Virus record (IMG/VR): IMGVR_UViG_3300028048_003164
Coordinates: 32,001-96,000 of that record
Strand: one strand, 5' to 3'
Length of the DNA stretch: 64,000 bases
Source: a virus
Taxonomy: Duplodnaviria > Caudoviricetes
A program made the translations under genes and the position numbers. The notes below the pieces were generated by a model. That model was not told where the DNA came from and searched no databases. It worked only from the letters and a program-made list of their open reading frames with translations. Shown in pieces: positions 39 to 52,409 of the stretch; within the stretch, counting starts at the first letter, position 1, and each line of letters opens with the position of its first letter.

Positions 39-2747
39 GTGCTTGAAGATGACATTGTCAAAGAGGGCGACCTTTGGAAACTCGGAAGGCATATGCTGCT
101 ATGTGGCGACTCTACGAAGCAGGAATGCGTAAGCAGGCTATTCCCCAATGGGGAGCAGGCAGACCTTTGGCTTACCGATCCGCCTTATAATGTAGCCTAC
201 GGGTATGAGGAAAGTGGAAAGCAGCGCGCTGACGGTCTTGTTGTCCTTAACGACAAGATGAGCAACGATAATTTTGAGCTTTTCCTGACCGATGCCTTTA
301 CCGAGGCAAAGGCGAACCTTAAGGCTGGCGGCACATACTACATTTTCCATTCCGACTCCTACTCTTTCTACTTTAGGAAGGCTCTTATCAATATCGGTGA
401 CATGGACTTGCGGCAGAACCTTATCTGGAACAAGAACAGCCTTGTCCTTGGAAGGCAGGACTATCACTGGAAACATGAGCCATGTCAGCCAGCAGGTACG
501 CTTGTACAGACGATAGAAGGTATCAAGCCAATAGAGACCCTAACAAATAGAGACAGGGTTATTTCTTATGATTCGCTTAGTGGTCAGGTCGTCGGATATA
601 GAAACGGGGGTTATGCTATAGAAACGGCAAGCAGACACTACAATGGGCTGTTGTATTCCATTTCTGTAGGAGAACATACCACAAAAGCGACAGACAACCA
701 TGATTTCAGCATACGTTTCAATGGCAATTGCAAGAAAGCGTATTGCACTTATCTTATGCGTCGTGGTGATTGGTGGCGCGTTGGGCATACAAGAGCTTAC
801 GATGCACGTCAGTTTGGGTTAAAAAGCCGACTTTCACAAGAGAAGGCGGAGGAAGCTTGGCTTATTGAAATGTACGACAATAGGCTTGATGCCCAAGTAG
901 GTGAGCAAATCTTGGCGGTTAAATATGGTATACCTTATACCCATTGGGAGGTTGAGAGATGGATGACTGTCACGGAAAATGTACGGAATGAAAAGCAGAT
1001 AGCGGATATTTATGATGCGTTGGACTTGGAATTGTTAAGAGAAAATGCGTATCGTTTACTGCATGACTTTGGACGTTCGGAGCGTTTCCCGCTAATAACC
1101 AAACTGACTGTTGGACAGCGTTTCAGCACAAGGGTGACGGCTAAAATCAACGCTTGTAACCTTATCCCTGAACTGATGCAGGTGCCTATACCTACTGGCA
1201 ACGGGAAGGATAACCCAAATTTTACTTGGGAGGTTATAGAAAAGGTTGATTATAAGCCATTTGAAGGCATGGTATATTCCCTTGCCGTGGAGAAACATCA
1301 TCATTATATCGCAGACGGAATAATTACGCACAATTGCTTGTACGGTTGGAAGGACGGGGCAGCACACAACTGGTACTCCGACCGTAAACAATCGACCGTG
1401 ATAGATTGGGACAGGCCGACGAAATCGGTACTTCACCCTTGTCTTGACCCAACAACGCTCGTTATGACTATAGCGGGGTACAAGCCTATAGGCGAGGTTC
1501 AGAAGGGAGAGAAGGTTCTTGCAGGAGACGGTCGTTTCCATGACGTAGAATTTGTTTCCCGACATCCATACAACGAGCCGATATATAATATAAGGGCTGA
1601 AGGCTCAAATATCTATGACCGCGCAACTCATAACCATCCCTACCTCATTGCTCGCCGCAAAAAAGACGGGACATTTGATGTCGGCTTTATAAATGCTGAC
1701 AAACTGAAAAATGGTGACTATCTCATGACACCGCAAGTGGCTCATGGCTCGGAATCGCCCGTTACCGAGCTTGATGCATGGTGCTATGGTTTATGGCTTG
1801 CACAGGGAAGCATTCAGAAAGCAGGACATGGAGAAAACGAGTACCCTGTATTCTCTATCGATTCAAGAAAGAACGAATTAGAGGAAAAACTTTTCCTATG
1901 GGGTGGAGAAAAAGCCAAGACATATCCAAATGGTAGTGGAAATGGCATAAAAGTTATGGTCTTTGACAACGACAAGGCAAAGGATTGTGTAAAACTTTGC
2001 GGAAAGCATGCGGAGCACAAGACTGTATCCGAAGAGGTGTTCACTTGGAGTGAGGGATTACGTCGAGCTTTCTTTGAAGGGTATATGGCAGGTGACGGAT
2101 GTGTTATAAGCACCCGAGGATATCGCCATTCAAAAAGTGTCTCCATCGCCCTTGCATCACAAATCCGCTACATTGCGGAATCGTTAGGCTACCGCACGTC
2201 TTTCTATAAACGAGATCCGAAGGAAGGGGCTGGTATTGGTGATAGAAAATTCAAAACGATGCGCATATGCTATAGTACCGATTACAGGAAAGCAGAGGGA
2301 AATAAAATATTAGAGCCTTTTGAATATGAAGGTGTGAAGTATATACTGCGTCGTGTTGTCGATATAAAGACAGAGCCTTACGATGCTGATGTTGTGAACC
2401 TCTCCGTTGAGGGTAACCATACATTCCAAACGGTGAATGGTTGTACCCACAACACGATGAAACCCGTCGGCCTTTTCGGTTATCTTATGAAGAACTCTTC
2501 CAAGAAGGGCGATGTCGTCTATGACGGGTTCGGCGGAAGCGGAACGACGCTTATTGCCGCCGAGCAGCTTGGACGCAGCGCACGCGTTTGTGAGCTTTCA
2601 CCCCATTACGTGAAGGTTATAATTTTCCGCTACATTAAGCTGCGCGGCAATTATGCCGATGTATTCAGAATCAATCCAGACGGCACGCAGACGAATATCA
2701 TGGAAATCTTTACGAAAGAGGAACTTGACAATTTGTGTAATACATAA
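39..2747 (+). CDS. N6/N4 DNA methyltransferase (ParB-MTase type) interrupted by two inteins; probably 5'-truncated by the window
   Basis: LWKLGRHMLLCGDST, catalytic DPPY, HP|TMKP and SAM-binding VYDGFGGSGTTLIAAE motifs. The frame is open back to base 3. About 280 aa of extein remain in this ORF after removing both inteins. Confidence 0.93.
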   Translation: MLEDDIVKEGDLWKLGRHMLLCGDSTKQECVSRLFPNGEQADLWLTDPPYNVAYGYEESGKQRADGLVVLNDKMSNDNFELFLTDAFTEAKANLKAGGTYYIFHSDSYSFYFRKALINIGDMDLRQNLIWNKNSLVLGRQDYHWKHEPCQPAGTLVQTIEGIKPIETLTNRDRVISYDSLSGQVVGYRNGGYAIETASRHYNGLLYSISVGEHTTKATDNHDFSIRFNGNCKKAYCTYLMRRGDWWRVGHTRAYDARQFGLKSRLSQEKAEEAWLIEMYDNRLDAQVGEQILAVKYGIPYTHWEVERWMTVTENVRNEKQIADIYDALDLELLRENAYRLLHDFGRSERFPLITKLTVGQRFSTRVTAKINACNLIPELMQVPIPTGNGKDNPNFTWEVIEKVDYKPFEGMVYSLAVEKHHHYIADGIITHNCLYGWKDGAAHNWYSDRKQSTVIDWDRPTKSVLHPCLDPTTLVMTIAGYKPIGEVQKGEKVLAGDGRFHDVEFVSRHPYNEPIYNIRAEGSNIYDRATHNHPYLIARRKKDGTFDVGFINADKLKNGDYLMTPQVAHGSESPVTELDAWCYGLWLAQGSIQKAGHGENEYPVFSIDSRKNELEEKLFLWGGEKAKTYPNGSGNGIKVMVFDNDKAKDCVKLCGKHAEHKTVSEEVFTWSEGLRRAFFEGYMAGDGCVISTRGYRHSKSVSIALASQIRYIAESLGYRTSFYKRDPKEGAGIGDRKFKTMRICYSTDYRKAEGNKILEPFEYEGVKYILRRVVDIKTEPYDADVVNLSVEGNHTFQTVNGCTHNTMKPVGLFGYLMKNSSKKGDVVYDGFGGSGTTLIAAEQLGRSARVCELSPHYVKVIIFRYIKLRGNYADVFRINPDGTQTNIMEIFTKEELDNLCNT
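483..1334 (+). mobile_element. Intein 1 (284 aa) in the MTase, with an atypical central domain (possibly GIY-YIG-like)
   Basis: Starts KHEP|CQPAGTLV, block B ATDNH, ends VYSLAVEKHHHYIADGIITHN|C. Splicing restores KHEPCLYGWK. Confidence 0.9.
1440..2453 (+). mobile_element. Intein 2 (338 aa) in the MTase with a LAGLIDADG homing endonuclease
   Basis: Starts LHP|CLDPTTLV, block B ATHNH, LAGLIDADG-like helices YGLWLAQGS and FFEGYMAGDG, ends VVNLSVEGNHTFQTVNGCTHN|T. Splicing restores HPTMKP. Confidence 0.92.
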
Positions 2748-2778
2748 ATAAGAGATAAAAAACGGAATTTTTTAATAT

Positions 2779-3996: not shown

Positions 3997-4388
3997 AAAA
4001 GGGGAAAATATACGAGTTTGACCCTATTCTCTATCCTCGTCTGTTGTGGATAGTCAAAGGTTCGGGGGATTTCGTCAGGGAACACTTTCGCAAGAAGGGA
4101 GGTGACGAACTGACGGAAGACGACGTGGATATGCGCTATGTCGATTCGTGGGTATGCAAGTGCGAGCGGAAATCCGACAACAGGCTCGGTATCGTTTTCT
4201 TTTTTGACACAGGGTTAGAGGCTAAACAGCTTGTTCACGAATGCTATCACGCCCTTACGGCATTTGTCAGCGAGATTAACGCCGACCTCCCAGACTATGA
4301 CAGTGACGGGATGGAGGAGTTTGCGGCATACTTGATAGAGTGGATTTTCGATTGCTGTTGGAAGGTAAAGCAAGGTAAGGTGAAATGA
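3993..4388 (+). CDS. Small HExxH metallopeptidase-like protein (paralogue of the previous gene)
   Basis: HECYH followed by EFAAYLIEWI. Confidence 0.6.
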   Translation: MKKGKIYEFDPILYPRLLWIVKGSGDFVREHFRKKGGDELTEDDVDMRYVDSWVCKCERKSDNRLGIVFFFDTGLEAKQLVHECYHALTAFVSEINADLPDYDSDGMEEFAAYLIEWIFDCCWKVKQGKVK

Positions 4389-6766
4389 CAGACACGGACA
4401 TTTTGAGGGCTTGGACGCTGAAGAGTTCCCTTAACTTCACAAGGTACTTCTTCAAGCAGAACAACGACATGAAGTTCATCATAGGCAGGCACCACAAGCT
4501 TATCTGTGATGCCCTTGATGATGTCCTTAACGGAAAATGCAACAAACTTATTATTAATTTGTCGCCGAGATATGGAAAAACGGAACTTGCAGTAAAGAAC
4601 TTCATTGCTATGGGGTTAGCCGTCAATCCTTCTGCCAAATTCATCCACCTCTCTTATTCTGCCAACCTTGCACAAGACAACTCTATTGCCGTAAAAAATA
4701 TAGTTCAAAACGAAGAATATCAACGGCTCTATCCTACCCGTATCACCTACGGAAAGAATATGAAATCTCAGTGGGAAACCGACCAAGGAGGTGGCTTGTA
4801 CGCCACATCTACGCTCGGTCAGATTACTGGTTTCGGTGCAGGTCTTGTCGAAAGGGAAGGTGAACCGTATCGTTTTGGTGGCGCAATCATTATCGATGAC
4901 CCTATCAAGCCGGAGGATGCCCTTTCCGATGTTGTCCGTGAGCGTGTGAACCGACGTTTTGAAACAACAATCAGAAACCGCGTCAATTCCCGTAACACAC
5001 CCATTATCATTATCATGCAGCGTTTGCATGAGCATGACCTCTGCGGCTATTTGCAGGAAATAGAACCCGACGAGTGGCGGGTGATATCACTGCCAGTTAT
5101 ACAGATAAACGAGAACGGAGAGCGTGAAGCACTGTGGCCATACAAGCATACGTTGGAGGAACTTGATAAAATAAATGCAGCGAACTCCTTTGTTTTTGAG
5201 ACGCAATATCAGCAGAACCCAACGCCGATGGAAGGTCTGATGTACGAACACCCGTTCAAGACATATTCAAAACTTCCGCCCGTAAAGCTTGGAACGATGT
5301 GTAACTGCACGGACTCTGCGGACACAGGTGCCGACTATCTCTGCTCAATCACCTATCTATCAATGAAGGATGGTTACTATGTTACAGATGTAATATTCAC
5401 GAAGAAAAGCATGGAACATACCGAGCCGTGGATGGCGCAGATGCTGGCTAAATGGGATGTTCGATACTGCGTCATTGAATCCAACAATGGTGGCAGGGCA
5501 TTTGCCAGGAACGTGGAGAGACTATCCCGTGAGTATGGCAATGGAAAGACTACGTTCATAACATTCACGCAAACGAAAAACAAACAGGTTCGCATCTTCA
5601 CAAGAAGCCAAGAAGTGAACAATCTGCTTATCTTCCCCGAGGATTGGGAGCGCAGGTGGCCAGAGTTTGCCCATATGATGAAATCGTACAGAAGAGAAGG
5701 ACATAATGCGCATGATGATGCTTGTTTTACGGCAGGAACTCCCGTGGCAACTATATGGGGAAATAAGCCTATTGAAAAGTTAAAGGTAGGCGATTATGTT
5801 TTAACCCCATTCGGAGTAAAGAGAGTCCTTGCATGTGGAAAGACGGGACATAAGCCTACGGTTTCGCGTTTTGGTTTGCAAGTGACTGAAAACCATAGAT
5901 TTTTTAGCTTAAATAGCTTTAAGCCAGTGATGGAATGTGAAGAAAATTCGTTATCTTTGCTTGGAATAAAAGAGCAATTGTTATGGAGATTCAGGAAACT
6001 ATTACTTTCAACGGAGTCGAATACCGTCTTGTGGGGTCGGGAAGGTATTATCTCAGCCAGTCAAAGACTAACGAGGGACGAAAAGGCGCAAAAAGCCTTC
6101 ATGTCGCAATTTGGGAGTTTTATAACCAACAAGAAGTTCCTAAAGGCTATTGCATTCATCATAAAGACCATAATACTTTTAATAACGACATCAGTAACTT
6201 GGAGTGTTTACCGATTAAGCAACACTTGTCGGAGCATAGCAAGAAGAATTGGCAATACGCTGAATATCGGAAAAAAATGGCAGATACCCAACAGAAACGT
6301 TGTGAGGCCGCATCAGAGTGGCACAGAAGCAAAGAAGGAAGGGAATGGCATAGAAAACACGCACATTGCGAGCGAAAACTGCGAGTCAGCATTTGTAGGT
6401 TCTGCGGAAAAGGTTTCCTGTCAAACAAAATCGACGCATGGTTTTGCAGCGAAAAATGCGGTGAGAACTACCGAAGAAACTATGAACTCAAATATACGGC
6501 TGTCTGTCAAGAGTGCGGCAAGGTATTTCAGTACGGAAAAGGATCAGCTGGACAACCAGATAGAAAGTTCTGTAGCCGTTCTTGTCACATCGCGAACAAC
6601 AACAGAAAACGCAAGAGACGTGTATAATATCACGGTAGAGGATGTCGGTTGTTATTATGCCAATGGAATTCTTGTGTCGAATTGTGATTGTGCTACTATG
6701 GTCATTGAAAGGGGAAGCCTTATCAGCGGCGCAAGCGATGAACAGATACTTTCGGATTTCTTATAG
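4385..6766 (+). CDS. terL: Terminase large subunit with intein
   Basis: Walker A LSPRYGKT, Walker B IIIDDP, MQRLHEHDL, YQQNP, nuclease motifs DSADTGADY, IESNNGG and HDDA|CD. Confidence 0.95.
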   Translation: MTDTDILRAWTLKSSLNFTRYFFKQNNDMKFIIGRHHKLICDALDDVLNGKCNKLIINLSPRYGKTELAVKNFIAMGLAVNPSAKFIHLSYSANLAQDNSIAVKNIVQNEEYQRLYPTRITYGKNMKSQWETDQGGGLYATSTLGQITGFGAGLVEREGEPYRFGGAIIIDDPIKPEDALSDVVRERVNRRFETTIRNRVNSRNTPIIIIMQRLHEHDLCGYLQEIEPDEWRVISLPVIQINENGEREALWPYKHTLEELDKINAANSFVFETQYQQNPTPMEGLMYEHPFKTYSKLPPVKLGTMCNCTDSADTGADYLCSITYLSMKDGYYVTDVIFTKKSMEHTEPWMAQMLAKWDVRYCVIESNNGGRAFARNVERLSREYGNGKTTFITFTQTKNKQVRIFTRSQEVNNLLIFPEDWERRWPEFAHMMKSYRREGHNAHDDACFTAGTPVATIWGNKPIEKLKVGDYVLTPFGVKRVLACGKTGHKPTVSRFGLQVTENHRFFSLNSFKPVMECEENSLSLLGIKEQLLWRFRKLLLSTESNTVLWGREGIISASQRLTRDEKAQKAFMSQFGSFITNKKFLKAIAFIIKTIILLITTSVTWSVYRLSNTCRSIARRIGNTLNIGKKWQIPNRNVVRPHQSGTEAKKEGNGIENTHIASENCESAFVGSAEKVSCQTKSTHGFAAKNAVRTTEETMNSNIRLSVKSAARYFSTEKDQLDNQIESSVAVLVTSRTTTENARDVYNITVEDVGCYYANGILVSNCDCATMVIERGSLISGASDEQILSDFL
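5952..5959 (+). promoter_or_regulatory. Candidate internal Bacteroidetes -7 promoter box for the nested HNH gene
   Basis: TATCTTTG matches TAnnTTTG and ends 23 nt before ATG 5983. No clear -33 box. Confidence 0.55.
5983..6627 (+). CDS. HNH homing endonuclease with C-terminal zinc-finger repeats, nested in the intein in another frame
   Basis: LHVAIWE...IHHKDHNTFNNDISNLECL...H (HNH_3-type) plus two CxxCGKxF...FCSxxC repeats. Frame offset 2 relative to terL. Confidence 0.9.
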   Translation: MEIQETITFNGVEYRLVGSGRYYLSQSKTNEGRKGAKSLHVAIWEFYNQQEVPKGYCIHHKDHNTFNNDISNLECLPIKQHLSEHSKKNWQYAEYRKKMADTQQKRCEAASEWHRSKEGREWHRKHAHCERKLRVSICRFCGKGFLSNKIDAWFCSEKCGENYRRNYELKYTAVCQECGKVFQYGKGSAGQPDRKFCSRSCHIANNNRKRKRRV

Positions 6767-6829
6767 GAATGACGAGGAATGATAAGATACTTTAGCATAT
6801 TTTTCTGCCGTTTTTTCGTACTTTATTCG

Positions 6830-6837
6830 TATCTTTG
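6830..6837 (+). promoter_or_regulatory. -7 promoter box for the luxS-containing operon
   Basis: TATCTTTG 17 nt upstream of ATG 6855. Confidence 0.6.
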
Positions 6838-6854: not shown

Positions 6855-7115
6855 ATGGGATTTCATAGAGTATCAGCAACGAGAAACATGCGCACACCTC
6901 ATGCGCACCTCGATAGGAAGGATAATGGGGATATATATGCCGTTTACAAGTTGGGCTTCACCAAGAATGCATCACGCTTTGAGTATTGTTTCATAGGAGG
7001 GGAGTCAGGAACGTTGACTTTTGACGGGAATGTAATAGAGGCGCATCCGAAGTTCAAGAATATCGATGCATTTGAGGGATGGTGCAGAAAGTATTTAGCA
7101 GAACATGATTTATAA
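6855..7115 (+). CDS. Hypothetical protein
   Basis: First ORF after the promoter, with an A-rich leader. Confidence 0.6.
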   Translation: MGFHRVSATRNMRTPHAHLDRKDNGDIYAVYKLGFTKNASRFEYCFIGGESGTLTFDGNVIEAHPKFKNIDAFEGWCRKYLAEHDL

Positions 7116-7118
7116 GAT

Positions 7119-7313
7119 ATGAGAGTATTTTTTCAAGACCCAGACACGGAATATGTGATTTTCCATACGGAGGACAGTCCCGTAATACCGAACGTTGGAG
7201 AGGAAGTTCGGTTGGAAATGAATTGGTATAAAGTCGTGGAACGCACGTTCTATTACAAGCATCTAACCAATATGGATGATAATAGCTGCACTGTCTGGGT
7301 TAAACCTTTATAA
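7119..7313 (+). CDS. Hypothetical protein
   Basis: Operonic spacing. Confidence 0.55.
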   Translation: MRVFFQDPDTEYVIFHTEDSPVIPNVGEEVRLEMNWYKVVERTFYYKHLTNMDDNSCTVWVKPL

Positions 7314-7322
7314 TAATAAGCA

Positions 7323-7646
7323 ATGGCTACAGATGAATTAAAACAAGAATTGACTTCCCTAAACAAAAATGACCTTCTTTATTTGATAGAGGGTCTTATG
7401 GAAGATGGTGTGATAGACATCACGGATATTACACTATGTCACACAAGGGCACTTGAAAGCAAACTTGCTGCAAAGGACAAGGTTATCTTTGAGGCAGATA
7501 AGTGTATCTTTGAAAGCGTATTTACCGATTCTATAGGCAAACCTGCTGATAATGCAGCCCTGATGCGTAAGTTGGAATGGATGGAAAAGACGGGAATGCA
7601 TAATATGGACGGAATAATGGAATATCTAAAATCAACAAACAAATAA
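7323..7646 (+). CDS. Hypothetical protein
   Basis: TAATG overlap with luxS. Confidence 0.6.
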   Translation: MATDELKQELTSLNKNDLLYLIEGLMEDGVIDITDITLCHTRALESKLAAKDKVIFEADKCIFESVFTDSIGKPADNAALMRKLEWMEKTGMHNMDGIMEYLKSTNK

Positions 7647-8140
7647 TGGAAGCGATAGCAAGTTTTACGATTGACCACACAAAGTTAAAGCCTGGGATTT
7701 ACGTTTCCCGTGATGACAAGGACTTTACGACCTTTGACCTGCGCTTCACAGAACCGAACAAAGAGCCTGCCATTGAGCCAGCCGCCATGCACAGCATTGA
7801 GCACCTAATGGCTACGTGGTTCCGTAACAGCGAGGTGAAGGATGACGTGGTTTATGTAGGCCCGATGGGATGTTTGACGGGAATGTATATCATTATGCGT
7901 AAAGGGTATGACGTTTATAAGATGGCCATTCTGACTTTGAGGTGTCTGCGGTGGATAAGTGAACAGACGGAAGTACCTGCCACAACGCCAGAGACGTGCG
8001 GCAATTACCTTCTTCACGATTTGGAATCGTGCAAGTGGGAGTGTAGTAGGTATTTCGTCCGCCTTCTTAATGATTTCCATTGCGAGTACACCAAGTTGCA
8101 CGTCACGCTTGATGATGGAAAGGAGTTTGCAGATGCTTAA
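7646..8140 (+). CDS. luxS: S-ribosylhomocysteine lyase (AI-2 synthase)
   Basis: SFTIDH, TTFDLRFTEPN, metal-binding HSIEH, catalytic GPMGCLTG and CGNY all present. Confidence 0.96.
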   Translation: MEAIASFTIDHTKLKPGIYVSRDDKDFTTFDLRFTEPNKEPAIEPAAMHSIEHLMATWFRNSEVKDDVVYVGPMGCLTGMYIIMRKGYDVYKMAILTLRCLRWISEQTEVPATTPETCGNYLLHDLESCKWECSRYFVRLLNDFHCEYTKLHVTLDDGKEFADA

Positions 8141-8151
8141 AATAAAAGGCA

Positions 8152-8901
8152 ATGAAGATTCAATACGCATCAGACCTACATTTGGAGTTCCGTGCCAACC
8201 GAGAGTGGCTGCGTGAGAATCCGTTGGAAGTGGCAGGAGACATCCTTCTGCTTGCTGGAGATGTTATGCACATAGAGGATTGTGCTTGGTTCTGGGACTG
8301 GGCAGGAAAGAATTACAAACATGTGCTTGCCGTGCCAGGAAACCATGAGTTCTATGGTAGTAACCTTGCAGACTATGCTGAAAGTTTCGTTAAGCCAATA
8401 TACTCTAACGTTGCATACTATCAGAATAAAGTTGTTCGGATAGAAGATACGGATTTCATATTCTCCACGCTATGGTCTGACATTGCACCAGAACATGAAC
8501 TTTCTGTAAAATGTGGCTTGAATGATTTCCGAATGATAGAGTTTGGAGATTATAGACTGACTCCGCATGTGTATAGGCACGAGCATGAGTTCTGCGTTAG
8601 AATGATAAAGGAAATGGTCGAGGCATCTACCGCCAAGCATATCGTTGTTGTCACCCACCACTCACCGTCTCTGCTGACGATAGCAACGGAACACCATACA
8701 AGCCCGCTACGTTCAGCCTTTGCCACAGACCTACACTATCTAATGGAGGACGGAAGGATTGACTATTGGGTCTACGGACACTCGCATACGAACATCAACT
8801 GCAAGGTGTTCAATACGGAGGTGATATGCAATCAGCTCGGTTATGTGGAACACAATGGGCAGATGGCAGGTTTTAGGTTAGATAAATATTTCGAGATATA
8901 A
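8152..8901 (+). CDS. Calcineurin-like metallophosphoesterase
   Basis: SDLHLE, LAGD, VPGNHE, VTHH and YGHSH motifs. Confidence 0.92.
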   Translation: MKIQYASDLHLEFRANREWLRENPLEVAGDILLLAGDVMHIEDCAWFWDWAGKNYKHVLAVPGNHEFYGSNLADYAESFVKPIYSNVAYYQNKVVRIEDTDFIFSTLWSDIAPEHELSVKCGLNDFRMIEFGDYRLTPHVYRHEHEFCVRMIKEMVEASTAKHIVVVTHHSPSLLTIATEHHTSPLRSAFATDLHYLMEDGRIDYWVYGHSHTNINCKVFNTEVICNQLGYVEHNGQMAGFRLDKYFEI

Positions 8902-8905
8902 AAAT

Positions 8906-9770: not shown

Positions 9771-9783
9771 GAAGCAAATTATT

Positions 9784-10251: not shown

Positions 10252-10461
10252 GCGTTTTTTTTGCGGTTTGTTTTGCCCGTGTCGCTTTGATAGGGACTGG
10301 GTGGATAAGGTGTACGGATAAAGAAAAAACGAGGTGTTAAAAGCCCCGTTTTTTGTTTTTAGAAAAGGGACGGTATACGTTTCTCAACGTCCCGTCCCGA
10401 ACCCTTAGAAAAACGTGGTGAGTATGACTACCACGTGGGGTGCCTAAAGGACACCCTTTTC

Positions 10462-11013: not shown

Positions 11014-11154
11014 AACGTTTATCCTTTCTATTTTATTTTAATTTAATCGTTAAACAAATCTAAATACATATCCTTTGTAGGATTTAATTTTGCCGTTTTT
11101 AGCCCCACCGTTGCGCTCTTTGCGCTCGGGTGTGGTAGTAGTGCTTCTCCGGGG

Positions 11155-43991: not shown

Positions 43992-46026
43992 GCAAAAATC
44001 AGATTTAAGGAGGACGGAGAATGGCGTGAGGTGGAGCTGCCGAAGCATACGTGCGTACATTTCATCGATGAGTATAACAATGACTTTGAATTACGCCCCG
44101 ACCGTTTCGGTGGCATGGACGTAATTGCCAATGATGGCAAGATATCCATAGAGCCGTGCATGTCTAATAACATTACGATAAAAACTGTATAACACCGCCT
44201 CTAACGGCCTTTTGCCTCTAAGGTGGGCAATCATACCACCTAAGTGATAAAAAGGCAACATGGGGGCTAAAAACGAAAGAATATGGATTACATTAGTGAA
44301 GCAGAGGCATTGTCCGAAATTTACGATGGTTTTGAAGGTGGTTTTGAACCATACTCAAAAAGTGACCGTCGTGACTATGTAGATGCGAAGTCAAGGACGT
44401 TCAAAAAGTCTGACATTGGCAAGTGGGTAGTAACACAAAAGCCAAGACGTAAGAAAGGTGTCGTGAGCACCTTGTATCTTGTAGACCGAAACTTGACTAA
44501 GCGTTTCTGGTGGTCTCCCGACTCATCCTATGCAATGGTTTTTGAGAAAGAGAGTGCCGCAAGAATACAAGCTGCAAAATATCGGTTTAACAAAGCAAGT
44601 GTAAAGCAGATTACTTCAAGCATGGCAGACAAGAAATGGTTTTCGCTATGTTATGAATAACCAACAAAAAGAAAGAATATGGCAAAAGACGACAGAATAA
44701 AGGTCTCGTTCTCTGTGTCACTAACAAAGACATATACTCTTGACGAGATAGTGGATTTTCGCGAGAACAATTGTCTTGTGTCTGATGATATAAAGACAAC
44801 GCTTGAGCAGATGATTATAATAGATACAATCACCAAAATAAACGATGGTGGTGGTTGTTTCACGATAAAAGGTTAAGGCCATGAATAATAAAGCACAAAA
44901 CAGCATTAAGGTCGGCACAATCTGTACGCTGACAAAGAATGACTCGTTTATATTCCGTTTGACGGGTACTAACGAGCTAGGCTACCCGATGTCGGATTGT
45001 ATCGTCTACAAGCGTTATTACGAAAAGCCAAGCGTTCAGGTCGGCAAGGCGGTCGTGGTGGCATATACTACATTGTTTGAGCCAGCCGCAAAAGAGCATG
45101 TAGAATTGTTTAACGAACTTACAAAAAGGATGTAATATGGCAAAGAAAAAGAAAGTACGTCTTTGCAGTCAGTGTATTTACCTATCAAAAGATGGTGACG
45201 ACTGGTTTTGCGGTTGTGGCAATGGTTTTGTAGAACCTTACCAAATAGCATGTAAAGAAGACTTTGAAAGTGTGTAGTTATGAAAGAACAAGCTTATCTA
45301 AGTAGCATGAACGCTTTGTGTGAGCAGTTAAACGCCCTTATTCCCGTAAAGAACGAAGCGGATAGGGATAAGCTGAATGCGCTGATAGCAGATATGTGCA
45401 ACAGCCATTCTGAATATCCGCATTACGAATTGTATTGGGATAGGGACGTGTACATTAAGAGCGGCTGCAACGAGGGCAAGATACGCGAGGCCGTCTTGCA
45501 TGGTGATTTCCTTCAGTTTGAACCTAACGAGGATTTTGAAGAGCACCCTGGGGTCGTGGTAAGATTTAAGGATTGGGTATTTCCTCCAACCGATTAACTA
45601 TAAAGTGTTAAATTTATGAAGAATGAATATTTAGAGAAGCCTTTAGAAGTAGGCACCGTTCTTAAAGAAACGTGGTACGATAGTCTAACTGGCAAGGAAA
45701 ATGATTACTACTACATAGTTGGTGAATATTTTATATATAACTCTGATTATGACAATCCACAAATCCGTCCTCACAAGTTTTCTTTCAACGAACATATAAC
45801 AATTGCTTCCGAAGAGGAAAAGAAGCAGTTCTTTGACGTTCTTAAGAAAGAACACCTTATTTGGGACGAAATATCGGGTAAAGTAAGACGTGAATATGAA
45901 AAGATACGTCTAAGCGTTGAACTGAAAGTAAAACCAGGAACGGATGTAAATGAATTAATTGAAAAACTTAATTCTGAACTGGAGAAACCTTATAAAGTTT
46001 ATTCTATGAGTTTTGAAGATTTTTAA
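43989..46026 (+). other. Small accessory genes (43989-44192, 44283-44660, 44679-44876, 44881-45135, 45280-45597, 45616-46026)
   Basis: Co-oriented ORFs with A-rich leaders. Confidence 0.6.
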
Positions 46027-46031
46027 AATAT

Positions 46032-46289
46032 ATGGCAGACTGGATAAAAACTAACGGTGAAAGAATAGAAGTTCAGCCGAAGAACGGCACGGACTTTTCA
46101 TTAAACGAGCTGCAAGGCTTTGTCGGAGGGTACATAGAGATAGTTCGCATGGATGATGAGCATTTTATGGTGGTCAACGAGGAGGGTAAAGTATACGGTC
46201 TTCCTATCAACATGACGGCATCGATGCTTATCATGCGTGACACCATTGTCGGTGATGTGTTGGTGTGCAAAACAAATGAAATAAAATGA
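46032..46289 (+). CDS. DUF3846 domain protein
   Basis: LNELQGFVGGYIEIV...VNEEGK...N..AS...IVGDVLV. Confidence 0.85.
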   Translation: MADWIKTNGERIEVQPKNGTDFSLNELQGFVGGYIEIVRMDDEHFMVVNEEGKVYGLPINMTASMLIMRDTIVGDVLVCKTNEIK

Positions 46290-46295
46290 CATGCC

Positions 46296-46505
46296 ATGGC
46301 AAGGACAAAGTTCAACAAGAACGGAACGGTTACAATTATAGGACTGACGCAGGGAGAATGGTATATGTTGCAGGAGTGTCTGTCGCGCTGCCAAGACGTC
46401 ATGTCGTGGGATGAGGATGCGGGATATGCGGAAGACGGGGATAATTTCCTTTGGCGCATAGATGACCGAAAGGAGTATGAGACGCTGAAGAATATGAGGA
46501 TTTGA
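46296..46505 (+). CDS. Hypothetical protein whose stop codon is supplied by the IS right end
   Basis: Ends NMRI-TGA; the TGA is part of the IS end TTGA. Confidence 0.6.
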   Translation: MARTKFNKNGTVTIIGLTQGEWYMLQECLSRCQDVMSWDEDAGYAEDGDNFLWRIDDRKEYETLKNMRI

Positions 46506-47765
46506 CATACTCTCACGCATGAATACGTGAGATTCTTGGATGCAGGCGCACATGCGCCCTCCTTGAGGAAGGTGTCTTACTGGTGCTCTCCAATTCGGCA
46601 ATGCCCTGCCGAAGAATATTCTGGGCAGCGAGAAGATCACGGTCATGGACTGCGCCACACTCAGGGCAAGTCCAATGTCTATCCTTCAATTGAAGCTGCT
46701 TGTTGACATACCCGCACGTACACGTCTTTGATGACGGGTAGAAGCGGTCTATCTTGTGAACCACCACACCGTACTTCACGGCAACGTACTCCAACTTCTG
46801 AACGAAATCCGCATGGGCGAGGTCGTGCATCTTCCTGCCCCAGCGTCTGTTCATTCCTTCAAGGTTCAAGTCCTCGATGAAGATGCGGTCGTACTTTCGG
46901 CATAGCTCGTGGGCGAGTTTCCATTGGAAATCGCTGCGCTTGTTACAGATGTCGTTCATAAGACGGTCTAAATCCTTTCGTTTGCGCTCTCGGTTGTTAC
47001 TACCCTTCTTGCACTTGCTGAGATTGCGGCTTCTCCTGCGTAACTCGACAAGGCTTTCCTTCATAAACTGAGGATTGTCGTAGGCTGTGCCGTCGGACAA
47101 GGTTAGGTACTTTTTCAAGCCGAAGTCAATGCCAACGGATGCACCTTTGAGTGTCTTTCCGTAGGATTGCGGCTCTGCGTCGGTAACTATCAGTATGAAG
47201 TACTCGCCCAAGCGGTTACGTTTTAATACTACTCTCTTTACTTTTCCTTCATATTCACGGGATTTTGAAAATTTGTATGACTTATGTATCTTGTTAATCG
47301 CTATCTCGTTTCCGAATAGGCAAAAGCCGCATTGCTTATAGACAATGCTTGCAAAGTCCTTTGCCTTACGGAATTTCGGAGGTCTAATAGCCAAATGCTC
47401 AAAGAAACGCTTGTAAGCCATATCAAGACGCTCTAATATCTCCTGAACGGTCTGCGCACCAAGAAGATTTCGTTTGACACGCTTTGCTTGGTGATGCTGC
47501 ATCACTCCCAACGGGATATACTTTTTGAACAGCCTGTAGTATCTCTTCTGTAAAGCAAGCGCATGATTCCATACAAAGCAAGCCTCTCGGAGCATCCTGT
47601 CGATGTGCTTCGTCTTGTCCGTCCGATATAACTTGTATTTGTATGTAATCATACTGCAAAGATACAACAACTATTTGAATATTAAATACTTTTCTGTGCT
47701 AATTAAAGATAAAAACTGCGCTTTCATCCCCAACCTGAAGGACAGGGTATTCCCGCTTGTAAATC
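46502..47765 (-). mobile_element. IS200/IS605-family (IS1341-like) element, TnpB only
   Basis: Right end: CTCACG/CGTGAG hairpin followed by TCAA. Left end follows a TTTAT target motif (47766-47770) and has a subterminal hairpin. No tnpA. Confidence 0.85.
46513..47670 (-). CDS. tnpB: RNA-guided endonuclease TnpB (true start probably ATG 47652)
   Basis: TYKYKLY N-terminus, RuvC residues GIDFG, IEDL and DRD, and a CxCG...CPECG zinc finger. Confidence 0.95.
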   Translation of the reverse strand: MLYLCSMITYKYKLYRTDKTKHIDRMLREACFVWNHALALQKRYYRLFKKYIPLGVMQHHQAKRVKRNLLGAQTVQEILERLDMAYKRFFEHLAIRPPKFRKAKDFASIVYKQCGFCLFGNEIAINKIHKSYKFSKSREYEGKVKRVVLKRNRLGEYFILIVTDAEPQSYGKTLKGASVGIDFGLKKYLTLSDGTAYDNPQFMKESLVELRRRSRNLSKCKKGSNNRERKRKDLDRLMNDICNKRSDFQWKLAHELCRKYDRIFIEDLNLEGMNRRWGRKMHDLAHADFVQKLEYVAVKYGVVVHKIDRFYPSSKTCTCGYVNKQLQLKDRHWTCPECGAVHDRDLLAAQNILRQGIAELESTSKTPSSRRAHVRLHPRISRIHA

Positions 47766-47768
47766 ATA

Positions 47769-47806
47769 AAAAAGAGGCCATCACTTATGTGATGACCTTT
47801 CCTTTG
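47769..47806. terminator. Probable bidirectional terminator between convergent units
   Basis: AGGCCATCAC-TTAT-GTGATGACCT flanked by A and T tracts. Confidence 0.55.
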
Positions 47807-47991
47807 AAGTGTTGGCAGCTCTTCTGGCTAAGAAGGACGCATTTTGATTGTTTCCAGTATGGGCATGTCCCCATGGTCGGCATACCCTTGACGCTAAGAG
47901 TGTGAAACAAGGTTACCTCCGTGCAATAGGCACATTCGCGGCAGGTGTGAGATTCCTCAGTTATCTGCGCTTTCCTTTTCTTCGCCGCCAT
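47785..47991 (-). CDS. Small Cys-rich protein downstream of the portal
   Basis: CRECAYC...CPY...CQHF. Confidence 0.6.
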   Translation of the reverse strand: MAAKKRKAQITEESHTCRECAYCTEVTLFHTLSVKGMPTMGTCPYWKQSKCVLLSQKSCQHFKGKVIT

Positions 47992-48301
47992 AGATAAAAA
48001 CTGTTCCCGTCACGTCTGCGACAAGGTTCGTCTTCTTCACGTCATAATCAATAATGCCTTTTTTGACGAAGGCACGTCCGATAGCACCTGCAACCTGCCA
48101 TTTCGCTTCCTCGACAAGCAGCCGCAGCCCCTCCCTGTGTGATTTGACTTCTGGGTGTTCCTTCCTGAAACTGCGCACGTCATTCTTGGCGATGTGTATG
48201 CAAAGGCCAAGTTCTCTTGCGGTAGGAATGTCCTCAAAGACAACGGAACGGTCTATGCGTCTTGCAAGTTTGAGGAGGAATCGTGAGATTTTCTTTTTCA
48301 T
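47957..48301 (-). CDS. Hypothetical protein
   Basis: ATGA overlap with the portal gene. Confidence 0.6.
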   Translation of the reverse strand: MKKKISRFLLKLARRIDRSVVFEDIPTARELGLCIHIAKNDVRSFRKEHPEVKSHREGLRLLVEEAKWQVAGAIGRAFVKKGIIDYDVKKTNLVADVTGTVFIYGGEEKESADN

Positions 48302-49737
48302 ATGTTTTCTTTATTGTTTGTTGTTTCCGTTTGCGGTGCGATCTCCGTTGCGGCGGTTGGTTCGCTCATTGCCTGCTGCGCAGCCTGCATGGCCATAATC
48401 TGTGCGAAGGTGGCTTGCGGGTCTTCCGAGAGCCCTGCGTTCTCGATGGCCTCGAGAGGTGATACGAGCGGAGTGTCCCCTCCTGCGAGTCTCCATTTCT
48501 GGATATTCTGCATCTCGTCTTCCTGTATGAATGGTGTGATGATATTCTCGATAAGGATGGATTCGATGTCTTCTTCCTTGAAACCGACGTTGAGCTTCTT
48601 CAAGAAAGCCTTTATAATGCTGTTCTCCCTCTCGAGGAATTCAATCCAAGCACCACTTTCGTCGCCAATTTTGAGGTGAGCGTCCGTAAGGAGCGTCTTC
48701 CTCGCATCGTACCCTATGTTGCCGAGGCGTGACATCGTGGAGAAGGATATGTCGGGCATCTGTGCCTGCATGAAGAACATGTTGAGGAGGGTGCTGATGT
48801 AGTATTCGAGTGCTTGGTTGCTCTGCGCCCATGAAACGTAGGAGACGTCGCCACCTTCCGTAACACGGTAGATACGTCTTGTTTCTCCCTTCGCCTCTTC
48901 GCCGACGATGGTGCCCGCCACTTTGAGTATCGGGGCGCTGTTGTAGGCGAGGATGTCGGAATGGCGTGAAAGGGCGTACTCTATCTCCTCACGAATGTCT
49001 GTCAGTCCTTCCCATACGGGACTGTAGCGGTAGATGTAGATGCCTGGGATTTTGCCTATGCTTATCTCCTCACCTTCCGTGACCGCCTCCCACTCCGTGC
49101 TCTCGCTTTTCTTCCAGATGTAATGTTTGTCGGCTGTGAAGGTCTCGAAGAAGGTCGTTATGGAGTCCTTCACCTTCCTTGTGTATTCGAAGGACATGGC
49201 GTACATCTCGCCTTTTTCGTCAATGAGCGGCCAAAGCTGCACGCCCGTCATCGGGGAGAAGGTCTTGCACTTAAGCTTGTAGTTGCACGGGAAACCGTAG
49301 AGGTGGTGTCTTTCCTTCTTCGTGTACCATATCGTAAGCGCCTCGCAGCTTGCGTAATAGGCAAGCCCACGCTTTTTGTTCTCCGAGTCGATGTGCGCCA
49401 CCTGGTATATGCGCTCGATGGCCTTTACTATATTCTTTTTCTCGTCCGTGTCGTCACCCACGTAGTTCCTCTTTACGGGAATGGCGAAGGTGAACTCGTT
49501 CATACGTTTCGTAAGAAGCCTTTCAAGCCCGATGGCAAGCCTTGCCGCCTTATCCTTCGTACCGTCGGAGTGAATCTTGTCTTTCCGACCCTGCATGTCG
49601 TGGACAATCTTATGTTCGGACGGCTCATAGTCCTGACGCAGCTTCGCCCAAAAATGCGGAGGTGTCGTCCTTTCCTTGAGAGAGGCAATAATGTCCGTTA
49701 TATTATCACCGCTGAGGATTTCTTTTATATCTATCAT
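48298..49737 (-). CDS. Phage portal protein (SPP1-like)
   Basis: 479 aa with YEPSEHKI, KIPGIY, SRHSDILAYNSAPIL, YVSW and QMPDISF segments typical of Bacteroidetes-phage SPP1-type portals. Confidence 0.85.
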   Translation of the reverse strand: MIDIKEILSGDNITDIIASLKERTTPPHFWAKLRQDYEPSEHKIVHDMQGRKDKIHSDGTKDKAARLAIGLERLLTKRMNEFTFAIPVKRNYVGDDTDEKKNIVKAIERIYQVAHIDSENKKRGLAYYASCEALTIWYTKKERHHLYGFPCNYKLKCKTFSPMTGVQLWPLIDEKGEMYAMSFEYTRKVKDSITTFFETFTADKHYIWKKSESTEWEAVTEGEEISIGKIPGIYIYRYSPVWEGLTDIREEIEYALSRHSDILAYNSAPILKVAGTIVGEEAKGETRRIYRVTEGGDVSYVSWAQSNQALEYYISTLLNMFFMQAQMPDISFSTMSRLGNIGYDARKTLLTDAHLKIGDESGAWIEFLERENSIIKAFLKKLNVGFKEEDIESILIENIITPFIQEDEMQNIQKWRLAGGDTPLVSPLEAIENAGLSEDPQATFAQIMAMQAAQQAMSEPTAATEIAPQTETTNNKENI

Positions 49738-49765
49738 GATTCCTTAGAATTGCGCAACTTTTGCG

Positions 49766-49844
49766 CAAAAGTATTAAAAAAGTGTTTATTAACCAAATAT
49801 TTTATTCATTTATTTGCATAATATTTTTTTTATTCGTACCTTTG
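49766..49844. promoter_or_regulatory. Divergent portal / metK promoters
   Basis: TACTTTTG on - (49766-49773), palindromic box 49782-49800, TACCTTTG on + (49837-49844). Confidence 0.7.
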
Positions 49845-49866
49845 TATCATTAACAAAATTTTTCAG

Positions 49867-51087
49867 ATGAAAAAGAGATATTATTTTACGAGTGAGAGCG
49901 TCTCCGAGGGGCATCCAGACAAGGTGGCTGACCAGATATCGGATGCGGTGCTTGATGCGTTCCTCAAGGAGGATGAACGGTCTCATGTGGCAGTGGAGAC
50001 CCTTGTGACGACAGGGCAGGTAGTGGTTGCAGGTGAGGTGCGCAGCAAGGGGTACGTGGATATTCCGAGCGTTGTACGGGAGACAATCGCATCGATAGGA
50101 TATACGAATCCTCTCTACGGCTTCGATGCCAACTCCTGCGGAATACTTACGGCAATACATGAGCAGTCACCCGACATCAATCAGGGTGTCATCCGTGAGG
50201 AAGAGAAGATGCAGGGTGCGGGCGATCAGGGTATCGTTTTTGGCTATGCATCGGATGAGACCGAAACTTATATGCCAGTTGCCCACTATATAGCTACGCT
50301 TATAGTTAAGAGTTTGGCTGAAATCCGTAAGGAAGGCAAACTTATGCCATACTTACGCCCGGATGCTAAATCACAGGTGACCGTGGAGTATTCCGAGTTT
50401 GACGAGCCTTTACGTATTGATACTATCGTGGTTAGCACACAGCATGATGAGTTCGCCTCGGAAAAGGCTATGCAGGAGCAGATTCGCTATGACGTAATCA
50501 ATACCCTTGTCCCGTATGTTAAGACGAAGATAAAGGATGAGCGTATATTGAGATTGTTTAATAACGACATAAGATACCATGTCAATCCCACGGGAAAGTT
50601 CGTCTTGGGCGGACCAGCAGGTGATACGGGTTTGACGGGAAGAAAGATTATTGTCGACACCTATGGCGGCATGGCTCGTCATGGCGGCGGCGCATTCTCG
50701 GGGAAAGACCCGTCCAAGGTAGACCGCAGCGCAGCCTATGCAGCTCGCTATGTTGCAAAGAACCTTGTGGCAAACGGAATCTGTTCAAAGTGCGAGGTTC
50801 AGATTGGCTATGCCATAGGTGTAGCCGAGCCAGTTAGCGTTTATGTGGAAGACTTCGGTACATATAACGGTGGCGTAGGTGTTCTCGGTGATTTCGTGAA
50901 GGAGCACTTTGACCTTTCACCATACGGAATAGACAAGATGCTCGGAGGATTGAGAAAGCCCATCTATCTGCCGACCGCTGCCTACGGACACTTCGGACGC
51001 AATTCATACGAGAAGGACGGACTGACTTTCTTCCCTTGGGAGAAGGTAATGGCGAAGGAAGAACTTTTGGGAAGAAAGAAATATTAA
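49867..51087 (+). CDS. metK: S-adenosylmethionine synthetase
   Basis: [56 protein letters not shown] and YGHFGR. Confidence 0.98.
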
Positions 51088-51093
51088 CCTACA

Positions 51094-51163
51094 CGGGGAT
51101 GGTGCGTGTCAGTCCGCTAACGGTACAATCCGCAAGACGCAAGTGAAACTCTTGTCATCCTCG
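51094..51163 (+). ncRNA. 70-nt tRNA-shaped element immediately after metK
   Basis: CGGGGATG/CATCCTCG closing stem, GCAAG-TGAAACT-CTTGT T-arm-like hairpin and two short internal stems. Confidence 0.35.
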
Positions 51164-51176
51164 TTATTTTTGAATA

Positions 51177-51443
51177 ATGAAGAACCTATTTTGGGAAATT
51201 GCCGCAAGGCTTGGTTTTTGGATTCCGTGTAACAAGTACATGCCGCCACGGAAGTATTGGGATTGGGTACTTATAGGATACCATGAAAAGGGATTGTCTT
51301 ATTATTATATTCCGACCGTAGCGGAGTATTCTGCCACAAGGAAAATATGGATTGAGAACAATGAAAGCCCGGAAGAATATCTTAATGAAACCTGCGTTGT
51401 AACTCATTGGCATAAATTGCCACGGAAATTAAAAGTAAAATAA
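51177..51443 (+). CDS. DUF551-like protein
   Basis: WIPCNKYMPP...VL...VTHWHKLP. Confidence 0.65.
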   Translation: MKNLFWEIAARLGFWIPCNKYMPPRKYWDWVLIGYHEKGLSYYYIPTVAEYSATRKIWIENNESPEEYLNETCVVTHWHKLPRKLKVK

Positions 51444-51444
51444 T

Positions 51445-51756
51445 ATGTTCAGTAAACCGATAACAAACGAAGAGGAAAGATTTATAAAGAAGAATGCGGA
51501 GTCTATGTCTATCTCGGAAATAGCCACATCCCTCGGGAGGAGCTACTATACCATTCAGAGGTATATGAGTATTCTCGGGCTGAAGACGGGATTCCACAAG
51601 TGGACGAAGCAGGAGGACGAGCTTTTGAGGGAACTTTGGGAACAATATCCTGCAGGCTATATCTGCCGCCGTCTCGGGGTGGATGAGAACTGTGTCTACA
51701 ACAGGGTGAGACGGCTGAAACTGAAAAAGAAACGTATCGTCAAGAAGAAGGAATGA
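51445..51756 (+). CDS. Tandem HTH/Myb-like DNA-binding protein
   Basis: EIATSLGRSYYTI and WTKQEDELL...ICRRLG...VYNRVRRL. Confidence 0.7.
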   Translation: MFSKPITNEEERFIKKNAESMSISEIATSLGRSYYTIQRYMSILGLKTGFHKWTKQEDELLRELWEQYPAGYICRRLGVDENCVYNRVRRLKLKKKRIVKKKE

Positions 51757-52409
51757 AGAAGGTAGGTATAATTGTTGCCATGCAGAAGGAGTGGGATGCC
51801 CTCTTTGCAGGAACGGAGAAAGTAGGCATGGCTTTCGCCAAGGAGCGCACACGGAGGAACATACCCTATGTGGCGATGATAAGCGGCATCGGGAAGGTGA
51901 ACGCTGCCGTGACGGCATACAGGCTGTGGAAGGAATACGACTGCAACCGCATCATTTCTTTCGGCTGCGCTGGAGGCGTGATCCATGACGTTCATATCGG
52001 GGAAGTCATCGTGGGCGATGAGTATATGTACTATGATGTAAACTGCGGAAGCCCTAATGCAGTGGGGCAGGTGCAGGGGCACCCAGAGACATATCCGTCA
52101 TGCTATGCTGAATGGAGATTCTTGGATGGAATGAGGCATGGGCTGATTGCCTCCGGCGATACCTTCGTGGAGTCGGATCTGATGGCCTCTTCCATCATGC
52201 AGTCGCTGTATCCCGAGCATTACCCCGTAGCCTTGGATATGGAAAGCGCAGCCATAGCGCAGGTCTGTGAGGAGAGGGGTGTCGGTTTTACATCCGTGAG
52301 GGTAATATCGGACAATCCCTTGCTTGGAGAGAGGACGTATGATGCTTTTTGGAAAAGGAAGGACGAGAGGCTTGGCCAGCTGATGCGCAGTTTCGTAAAC
52401 ATGGATTAA
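51753..52409 (+). CDS. mtnN: 5'-methylthioadenosine/S-adenosylhomocysteine nucleosidase (Pfs)
   Basis: GIIVAMQKE, SGIGKVNAA, GCAGG, IASGDTFV, DMESAAIAQV and VRVISD. Confidence 0.95.
   Translation: MKKVGIIVAMQKEWDALFAGTEKVGMAFAKERTRRNIPYVAMISGIGKVNAAVTAYRLWKEYDCNRIISFGCAGGVIHDVHIGEVIVGDEYMYYDVNCGSPNAVGQVQGHPETYPSCYAEWRFLDGMRHGLIASGDTFVESDLMASSIMQSLYPEHYPVALDMESAAIAQVCEERGVGFTSVRVISDNPLLGERTYDAFWKRKDERLGQLMRSFVNMD

Follow-up and report, generated by a model that had tools for sequence, protein, structure and literature searches.

Why would a bacteriophage carry enzymes for successive steps of a metabolic cycle that its host already runs, and were their genes acquired as one unit or piece by piece? 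The question is raised by a 64,000-nucleotide stretch of DNA (hereafter the window), which comprises bases 32001-96000 of the 119,607-bp IMG/VR record IMGVR_UViG_3300028048_003164 (G000), labelled as a provirus with a CheckV completeness of 75%. An earlier note on this stretch had described genes for the S-adenosylmethionine (SAM) synthetase MetK, a DNA methyltransferase, the methylthioadenosine/S-adenosylhomocysteine (MTA/SAH) nucleosidase Pfs and the S-ribosylhomocysteine (SRH) lyase LuxS, and had suggested that they sustain methylation of the phage DNA and may also release autoinducer 2 (AI-2). In the reading that we favor, with a probability of roughly 0.6, these are genuine phage-borne auxiliary metabolic genes (AMGs) of the activated methyl cycle, which would boost the supply of SAM and the clearance of SAH and SRH during infection.

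Phage-borne enzymes of the activated methyl cycle

The positions of luxS, metK and pfs (Table 1) and the integrity of their catalytic motifs were borne out by the open reading frames (ORFs), the profile scores and the residue alignments. LuxS matches PF02664 at 6.2e-45 (153.1 bits, cut-off 27) and the NCBIfam equivalog NF002604 at 181.6 bits (cut-off 158), and its HSIEH motif (residues 49-53), the Cys76 of GPMGC and the Cys118 of CGN align with solved LuxS structures and are invariant in our alignment A2; we take HxxEH and the C-terminal Cys to be the metal ligands and the Cys of GPMGC to be the catalytic Cys. MetK scores 523.2 bits against TIGR01034 (cut-off 309.4), has all of the domains PF00438, PF02772 and PF02773, and contains GHPDK, GAGDQG and GGGAFSGKD, presumably the signature motifs of this enzyme. 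The best solved relatives of Pfs are all MTA/SAH nucleosidases (8e-19), its score against TIGR01704 is narrowly over the cut-off (79.6 against 73.8 bits), and E13, the E164 of DMES and the R183 and D187 of RVISD align with the solved enzymes and vary little or not at all in a 25-sequence alignment (A1); the N-terminal Glu, the Met-Glu pair and the Arg and Asp of R-x-x-S-D are assumed here to be the catalytic residues of such nucleosidases. The three proteins are LuxS, MetK and Pfs, with the predicted activities of those enzymes and with intact catalytic residues; that they are active, when they act and which of their products is selected are matters that we infer from sequence.

In the mechanism that we propose, phage MetK would raise the synthesis of SAM from methionine and ATP, either in infection or in the lysogen, and methyl transfer from SAM, in part by the intein-interrupted ParB-N6/N4 methyltransferase that the phage itself encodes, would give SAH, which is a product inhibitor of methyltransferases. 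Phage Pfs would then split SAH irreversibly into adenine and SRH, and phage LuxS would convert SRH to homocysteine, recyclable by the methionine synthase of the host, and to 4,5-dihydroxy-2,3-pentanedione (DPD); DPD, the AI-2 precursor, would be an unavoidable by-product, and adenine likewise a by-product. It is correct, as had been claimed, that these steps follow one another in an activated methyl cycle of the Pfs/LuxS type, the type on which Prevotellaceae hosts rely as well, and the biochemical logic appears sound. Since the hosts already have LuxS, Pfs and MetK, the effect would be a higher flux rather than a new pathway. The lack of a methionine synthase, first remarked for the window, holds for the whole 119.6-kb record, in which neither MetE-type (PF01717) nor MetH-type (PF02574) enzymes were found. 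No AhcY, the alternative route for SAH, was found on the five records searched, and no radical-SAM enzymes that could be users of Pfs on G000 or its sister record G001.

The same sister record (124,194 bp, also from IMG/VR) bears on whether the genes belong to a phage at all. G000 and G001 are collinear, with 183 of the 209 crude G000 ORFs matching G001, mostly at 90-100% identity, and G001 is circularly permuted with respect to G000, such that base 1 of G000 corresponds to G001 position 6112 and base 119,513 to G001 position 8408. The two ends of G000 are contiguous in G001, ~2.3 kb apart, and the ends of G001 itself map within G000, near 5-6.6 kb. Because the ends of G000 are joined in a collinear relative, all four genes lie inside a circular phage map, and the objection that the contig is a host-phage chimera fails. 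Along this map luxS, metK and pfs lie between phage genes, luxS beside the gene for the large terminase subunit (TerL) and metK and pfs between portal and capsid genes, which is the arrangement by which AMGs are recognized. The packaging context that had been described for them was confirmed for TerL and portal, but terS was not identified, the four small ORFs 5' of TerL matching PHROGs of unknown function or none.

The phage genome is evidently a temperate, integrase-bearing one of ~122-124 kb, with a tyrosine integrase gene at the start of record G000 and, elsewhere, genes for helicases and long ORFs 3' of the head genes. Of 566 matching genome loci, the best 80 encode proteins that share 76-79% identity with its LuxS; nearly all of these are titled rumen Prevotella, Prevotellaceae or other Bacteroidales, and this level of identity points to rumen Prevotellaceae as the likely host group. 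A megablast comparison of window positions 46000-64000 with GenBank phages gave no match.

Separate origins and purifying selection

In the LuxS tree the proteins of G000 and G001 form a pair (99 in the Shimodaira-Hasegawa-like approximate likelihood ratio test, SH-aLRT) on a long branch that is nested in a poorly resolved Prevotellaceae cluster; the LuxS proteins of two other records, G002 and G003, lie elsewhere in the same cluster, and several phage records of 150-410 kb are basal. MetK was found in 40 of 41 host-family genomes, with full-length matches 60-66% identical to the phage protein, and Pfs in all five of the host-like genomes (5/5), at 35-42% identity to phage Pfs. The phage Pfs also heads a series of ~40 protein clusters (P0001-P0041; 48-93% identity) on contigs of up to 162 kb, and these closer relatives are inferred to be phage-borne from the contig sizes, the low cluster sizes, the lack of names and the tree. 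In the Pfs tree the phage protein and these relatives make up a 40-row clade (SH-aLRT 99), itself part of a larger clade of 54 rows (99) that takes in the viral Pfs of what we call the L134 type and leaves out the Pfs of host Prevotella and the named Muribaculaceae enzymes. A phage grouping of the kind that the earlier note had proposed to test with trees is seen for Pfs, which falls in a clade containing viral enzymes apart from those of the host, but not for LuxS, which is host-like and nested in Prevotellaceae.

The gene order Pfs - phrog_5824 - x - capsid is common to this phage and the L134 type (in the latter, Pfs-LuxS-phrog_5824-x-capsid), i.e., Pfs has the same place relative to the head genes in both. 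Given the Pfs clade and the shared order of the head region, Pfs seems to be an old passenger of that region, one that accompanies the head genes in phage groups distant from one another. In L134-type phages, and in those with the cassettes described below, Pfs and LuxS are intact and lie within phage modules, as they do here; the two genes are adjacent in those phages, whereas in this one they are 43 kb apart with luxS near TerL, and the LuxS of this phage is of the Prevotellaceae type and 42-44% identical to the L134-type protein. Such a distant, Prevotellaceae-type luxS suggests relocation or replacement of the original partner of pfs. The present LuxS is, to judge by its tree position, a host-type copy acquired from Prevotellaceae and placed at another locus, adjoining TerL, and by the same kind of evidence LuxS, MetK and Pfs are separate acquisitions spread over two loci. 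That a full set could be put together from three origins at separate loci speaks for selection acting on the pathway rather than for its arrival in one capture event.

Ratios of nonsynonymous to synonymous divergence (dN/dS) between G000 and G001 are 0.09 for LuxS, 0.26 for MetK and 0.12 for Pfs, with 0.03-0.07 for portal and capsid; in comparison with G003 they are 0.11 for LuxS and 0.13 for MetK. The low ratios show that purifying selection maintains the genes. The two luxS alleles (at 91094-91585 in G001) have 81% nucleotide identity and a dS of 1.1, far more diverged than the genes around them, which are 96-98% identical (dS 0.05-0.18), and the disparity suggests an exchange of alleles by recombination within the phage LuxS lineage.

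How common the gene set is

An IMG/VR search with the single Pfs protein returned only the sister record, and the alignment A1 reached further, with 127 confirmed stretches; a corresponding scan for viral LuxS gave 160. Neighbors were counted within 10 kb at the best 80 loci of each scan. Around Pfs, 70 loci had Pfs and LuxS, six had MetK, Pfs and LuxS, and four had MetK and Pfs, which places LuxS near 76 of the 80. Around LuxS, 53 loci had LuxS and Pfs, four had all three genes, three had LuxS and MetK and 20 had LuxS alone (Pfs near 57 of the 80), and the median distance between pfs and luxS was 10 nt. Contiguous metK-pfs-luxS cassettes were found on eight distinct IMG/VR contigs (L204-L209, L230 and L231), one of which (L205) continues directly from MetK-Pfs-LuxS into an endolysin gene, and all three genes together with methylases occur also in G001, G002, G054 and G056. 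A metagenome scan with A1 is uninformative on the closer Pfs clade, as none of its best 80 loci exceeded 42% identity. LuxS matches were present in 12 of 50,697 GenBank phage records, the best of them in unannotated fecal "Bacteriophage sp." records with LuxS next to Pfs, and PHROGs v4 has no family for LuxS or Pfs. The genes luxS and pfs thus appear to be rare in GenBank phage records, and they are common in uncultured phages of gut type.

Closer to this phage the picture is less regular. Among the eight LuxS-bearing records found as close relatives, Pfs occurs in two and MetK in six (E at most 0.001), full-length in four. The co-occurrence that the earlier note had proposed to test is seen in IMG/VR at large, where pfs and luxS are usually adjacent, and is partial among the relatives; the four genes are not one module, and the set is not fixed. 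The 123.6-kb relative G003 (71 of 209 ORFs matched, at 55-80% protein identity) has LuxS, MetK and the methylase, its luxS lying in a different gene neighborhood than that of G000. The 673,114-bp genome G002 (direct terminal repeats, CheckV 100%) has LuxS, MetK and Pfs at three separate loci and 77%, 59% and 35% identical, respectively, to those of this phage; it differs in its five-fold larger genome, in a Pfs from a different branch and in its many methylases, with matches to five of the N6/N4 type, 11 of the C5 type (~8 genes, as some matches are pieces of one gene) and one of the D12 type.

The complete set had struck the earlier note as unfamiliar, a view that the cassette contigs, the four other records with all three genes and the published record do not sustain. 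In the parts of their preprint on which we draw, Kieft et al. (bioRxiv 10.1101/2021.01.05.425418) count metK, dcm, mtnN, ahcY and luxS among the auxiliary genes of viruses, on uncultured IMG/VR genomes just as here. They report that purifying selection acts on these families and that samples of gut type are rich in them, and they single out "metK and dcm" and "luxS and mtnN" for their co-occurrence within one genome. Unlike those pairs, this phage has all four steps, at two loci 42 kb apart; its methylase is not a dcm but an N6/N4 type with two inteins; and the differing origins of LuxS, MetK and Pfs go beyond what those parts of the preprint describe. The complete MetK-methylase-Pfs-LuxS set belongs to a known class of phage auxiliary genes and opens no new category. 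In the literature searched, none of these viral enzymes appears as experimentally tested.

Weighing the explanations

Several observations weigh against the reading of these genes as boosters of SAM supply and of SAH and SRH clearance. Pfs is under one of the two NCBIfam equivalog cut-offs (118.5 bits against 169 for NF004079), it has a Cys where the solved enzymes carry the Ser of GSAGG, and it was not detected in G003, a record that is 85% complete. The sole intact-looking methylase of G000 needs two protein-splicing events, and another N6/N4 methylase, a small one, is disrupted in both records, by an in-frame TAG in G000 and by a frameshift in G001. The connection with DNA methylation, moreover, is not a necessary one: G057, which is 89% complete and represents the L134 type, the commonest type of pfs-luxS phage, has pfs-luxS but no above-threshold match to the methylase families PF01555, PF00145 and PF02086, and the same three families gave no above-threshold match on G055, a triple-cassette record that is 55% complete. 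Since removal of SAH needs only Pfs, the near-constant presence of LuxS points to a value in homocysteine or DPD.

In one alternative AI-2 production would be the selected function, with Pfs and LuxS, and MetK to supply them, retained for a surplus of DPD/AI-2 from infected or lysogenic cells that reports infection density or manipulates neighbors, for example by way of prophage induction, biofilm formation or the choice between lysis and lysogeny. The synthesis of DPD needs exactly Pfs and LuxS, these two accompany each other much more often than MetK accompanies either of them, and this lineage has kept the pair despite different origins and a separation of 43 kb; the phage is also temperate. 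A link of AI-2 to prophages has been reported, although the abstract of PMC6616478 does not state it. AI-2 has been associated with phage release in the portion of PMC4338201 consulted here, and speculation of the same kind accompanies the phage LuxS reported in the consulted part of a 2026 digester study. We nevertheless hold this explanation to be unlikely. A search for AI-2 receptors, as the earlier note had advised, found no PF13407 (LsrB/LuxP-type) receptor on G000, G001, G002, G003 or G057, other receptor types not being searched, and no regulator tied to AI-2 was identified. In bacteria pfs and luxS are commonly neighbors, so one capture could simply have brought in both genes, and with hosts that already make LuxS and Pfs an extra signal would be quantitative only. 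Other phages tap autoinducer signalling through LuxR-type receptors or peptide systems that demonstrably influence the decision to lyse; compared with such phage quorum-sensing systems, this phage has the synthase-side enzyme pair only. AI-2 signalling is, then, an unsupported possibility, and its more specific form, in which a temperate Prevotella phage lineage kept Pfs and LuxS through the relocation or replacement of a gene since DPD/AI-2 itself was selected and the surplus reports phage load or induces neighboring prophages, strikes us as decidedly doubtful. If it were true, the AI-2 surplus would stand beside the peptide signalling of arbitrium as its metabolite-based equivalent.

Another alternative is metabolite salvage in place of support for methylation, i.e., the conversion of methionine and SAM to homocysteine (and then to cysteine or sulfide) and the recovery of adenine for a replicating 122-kb genome. 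The consulted parts of Kieft et al. (10.1101/2021.01.05.425418) have metK, dcm, mtnN, ahcY and luxS funnel organosulfur to homocysteine or cysteine; Pfs is a source of adenine, a gene for a short adenylosuccinate-synthetase-like enzyme is present (window 36506-37570), and pfs-luxS occurs in phages without detectable methylases. Yet adenine is gained per SAH and so tied stoichiometrically to methylation or SAM use, so that salvage itself depends on the methyl cycle; the PurA-like gene belongs to a different operon at a distance of 14 kb; and genes of the cystathionine pathway or for cysteine synthase were not seen near the loci, no search having been made for them. Salvage as the selected function thus seems to us improbable. 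We give still less credence to counter-defense, in which MetK, possibly with Pfs, would keep SAM high for fast DNA methylation against restriction or would counteract a SAM-consuming or SAM-dependent system of the host. It could draw on the finding that metK is the commonest of these genes in phages, has its own PHROG and is the top AMG in pig- and chicken-manure digesters in the consulted part of one study, and on reports, likewise consulted in part, that the T3 SAM lyase defeats type I restriction-modification and BREX by lowering SAM (bioRxiv 10.1101/2023.02.27.530186) and that type III CRISPR systems make SAM-AMP from SAM and ATP (PMC10600005, PMC13294483). The T3 lyase resembles the present case in that a phage enzyme acts on the host SAM pool to the advantage of the phage, but it works the other way: T3 breaks SAM down and inhibits MetK, while the present phage brings a MetK of its own along with enzymes that clear SAH. 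In the known examples SAM falls rather than rises, no defense or anti-defense gene is tied to these loci, and the idea is speculative throughout. It is very hard to credit, lastly, that the genes are host DNA that entered a provirus call through misassembly or faulty trimming, or that they are functionless passengers in decay. The provirus label, the completeness of 75% and the 76-79% identity of LuxS to host LuxS might suggest as much, but all three have phage genes on either side and recur at matching positions in the circularly permuted G001, which joins the ends of the record, their catalytic residues are intact with dN/dS of 0.09-0.26, and Pfs and MetK are far from the host copies.

If phage enzymes do augment the activated methyl cycle, then gut and rumen phages with a SAM synthetase and SAH-clearing enzymes may alter methyl economy, sulfur amino-acid flow and AI-2 in dense anaerobic communities. 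The host group, rumen Prevotella/Segatella, is culturable, which makes deletion and AI-2-reporter work conceivable.

DNA methylases and inteins

The methylase was previously listed as window positions 39-2747, which start at an internal GTG; its motifs are intact, as claimed (DPPY at residue 213, FGGSGT at residue 997), but its frame begins before the window and is interrupted by two inteins (Table 1), which split the PF01555 domain into two pieces. Because DPPY and FGGSGT are intact while the domain is cut in this way, the methylase is plausible only after two splicing events. The ParB-methyltransferase is kept in G000, G001 and G003. Intein 1 is common to all three in the alignment; intein 2 is a clean gap in the G001 and G003 orthologues and is present only in G000 (...VLHP|C...THN|TMKP), the open frames being 1070 aa in G000 and 732 aa in G001.

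The second N6/N4 methylase (SPPY, FMGSGT) lies 5' of the window, at 9501-10130 of record G000 and 120312-120839 of G001. The TAG in G000 is GAG in G001, and the two records thus carry two different lesions in DNA that is otherwise 98% identical. There are altogether four inteins in three genes of the phage, namely the two in the methylase, the Hint insert in TerL and one with a LAGLIDADG domain in a ResIII/SNF2-type helicase (G000 10242-12506).

Transcription units and expression

The luxS unit, the unit of metK, the 88-aa and 103-aa ORFs and pfs, and the head unit are all preceded by a 15-nt core, TTATTCGTAYCTTTG, which occurs in four exact copies in the window and, at up to three mismatches, in 17 matches against 4.1 expected. 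A wider motif, TTCGTAnCTTTG(T/C)A(T/C)C, is present in seven copies on G000 (record positions 3192, 17910, 22049, 38826, 57917, 81833 and 85602), each of which heads a separate unit; one lies 5' of a replication-type AAA gene, and the motif is conserved in G001. A shared late promoter was considered and rejected as a timing signal, since the wider motif heads seven units that include the replication-gene unit. The late expression proposed for these genes accordingly loses its footing, as the core before metK and luxS says nothing about timing, and it looks like the phage's general strong promoter, not a late one. The copy of the core at G000 22049 is followed by a AACCCTTAGAA leader.

For a check on expression, Logan contigs from four RNA-library runs (three samples, two studies) were compared with window positions 47500-57500. 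Contigs of 95-100% likeness were found over the head module (~53.7-57.3 kb) and parts of 47.8-48.9 kb. Over metK there were short pieces with unlike flanks (49906-49938 and 50620-50671), probably from the metK of other organisms, and over pfs almost nothing. As contigs cannot show absence or level, and DNA can occur in RNA libraries, they give no evidence either way on the methyl-cycle genes. Through window positions 53700-57300 the phage or its close kin recurs in animal gut metatranscriptome libraries, with DNA carry-over possible.

Other features of the window

The features that bear on the argument are collected in Table 1.

Table 1. Positions of the methyl-cycle genes and associated features in the 64,000-nucleotide window
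Feature	Position	Strand	Evidence and remarks
ParB-like + N6/N4 DNA methyltransferase	1..2747	+	ORF begins 459 bp 5' of the window (record 31541-34747, 1068 aa)
Intein 1 in methylase	480..1334	+	~residues 314-598, ends ...THN|C; matches to Hint_2 and intein C-terminal splicing region
Intein 2 with LAGLIDADG endonuclease	1440..2453	+	residues 634-971; matches to Intein_splicing, LAGLIDADG_3 and intein N-terminal region
Large terminase subunit TerL with Hint/intein insert	4385..6766	+	phrog_30251 7e-127; Hint_2; T7-terminase RNaseH-like domain
Promoter-like core TTATTCGTATCTTTG with TAnnTTTG box	6823..6837	+	exact match; heads the 6855-9283 unit containing luxS; conserved in G001
luxS, S-ribosylhomocysteine lyase, 164 aa (predicted)	7646..8140	+	start overlaps stop of ORF 7323-7646
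Metallophosphoesterase	8152..8901	+	directly 3' of luxS; PF00149 5e-15; phrog_1649 2e-42
Portal protein	48298..49737	-	divergent from metK; PF05133 1.3e-26; phrog_64
Promoter-like core TTATTCGTACCTTTG	49830..49844	+	ends 22 nt 5' of metK ATG
metK, methionine adenosyltransferase, 406 aa (predicted)	49867..51087	+	TIGR01034, phrog_1569
Two small ORFs (88 aa, 103 aa) between metK and pfs	51177..51756	+	103-aa ORF matches D5-like regulator/HNH PHROG; shares 4 nt with the start of pfs
pfs/mtnN, MTA/SAH nucleosidase, 218 aa (predicted)	51753..52409	+	TIGR01704; clade apart from host Pfs
Head module	53599..56318	+	promoter core 53599-53613; phrog_5824 protein 53653-54552; 128-aa protein; major capsid 55008-56318

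A 134-aa ORF 3' of pfs (52604-53008) was considered as a LuxS remnant and rejected, there being no Pfam or PHROG match. The adenylosuccinate-synthetase-like protein mentioned above has 354 aa and matches PF00709 at 1.4e-20. A PurZ or Z-genome role for it is unsupported, as it gave only weak matches (3.6e-8) to ordinary PurA structures, and the neighbors tested around its gene gave no Pfam hit and hence no HD- or MazG-type match.

Adjoining the portal gene is a gene for TnpB (IS605 OrfB/Cas12f-like) at 46513-47670 on the minus strand, which has no counterpart in G001 though both flanking ORFs have one, and which shares 77% identity with a copy at another site in G003; the gene was apparently inserted recently. 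Also on the minus strand, at 10462-13622, genes for a GATase-like protein, an Amidoligase_2 enzyme and a DUF932 protein stand in a row, a trio that is familiar from conjugative elements and phages.

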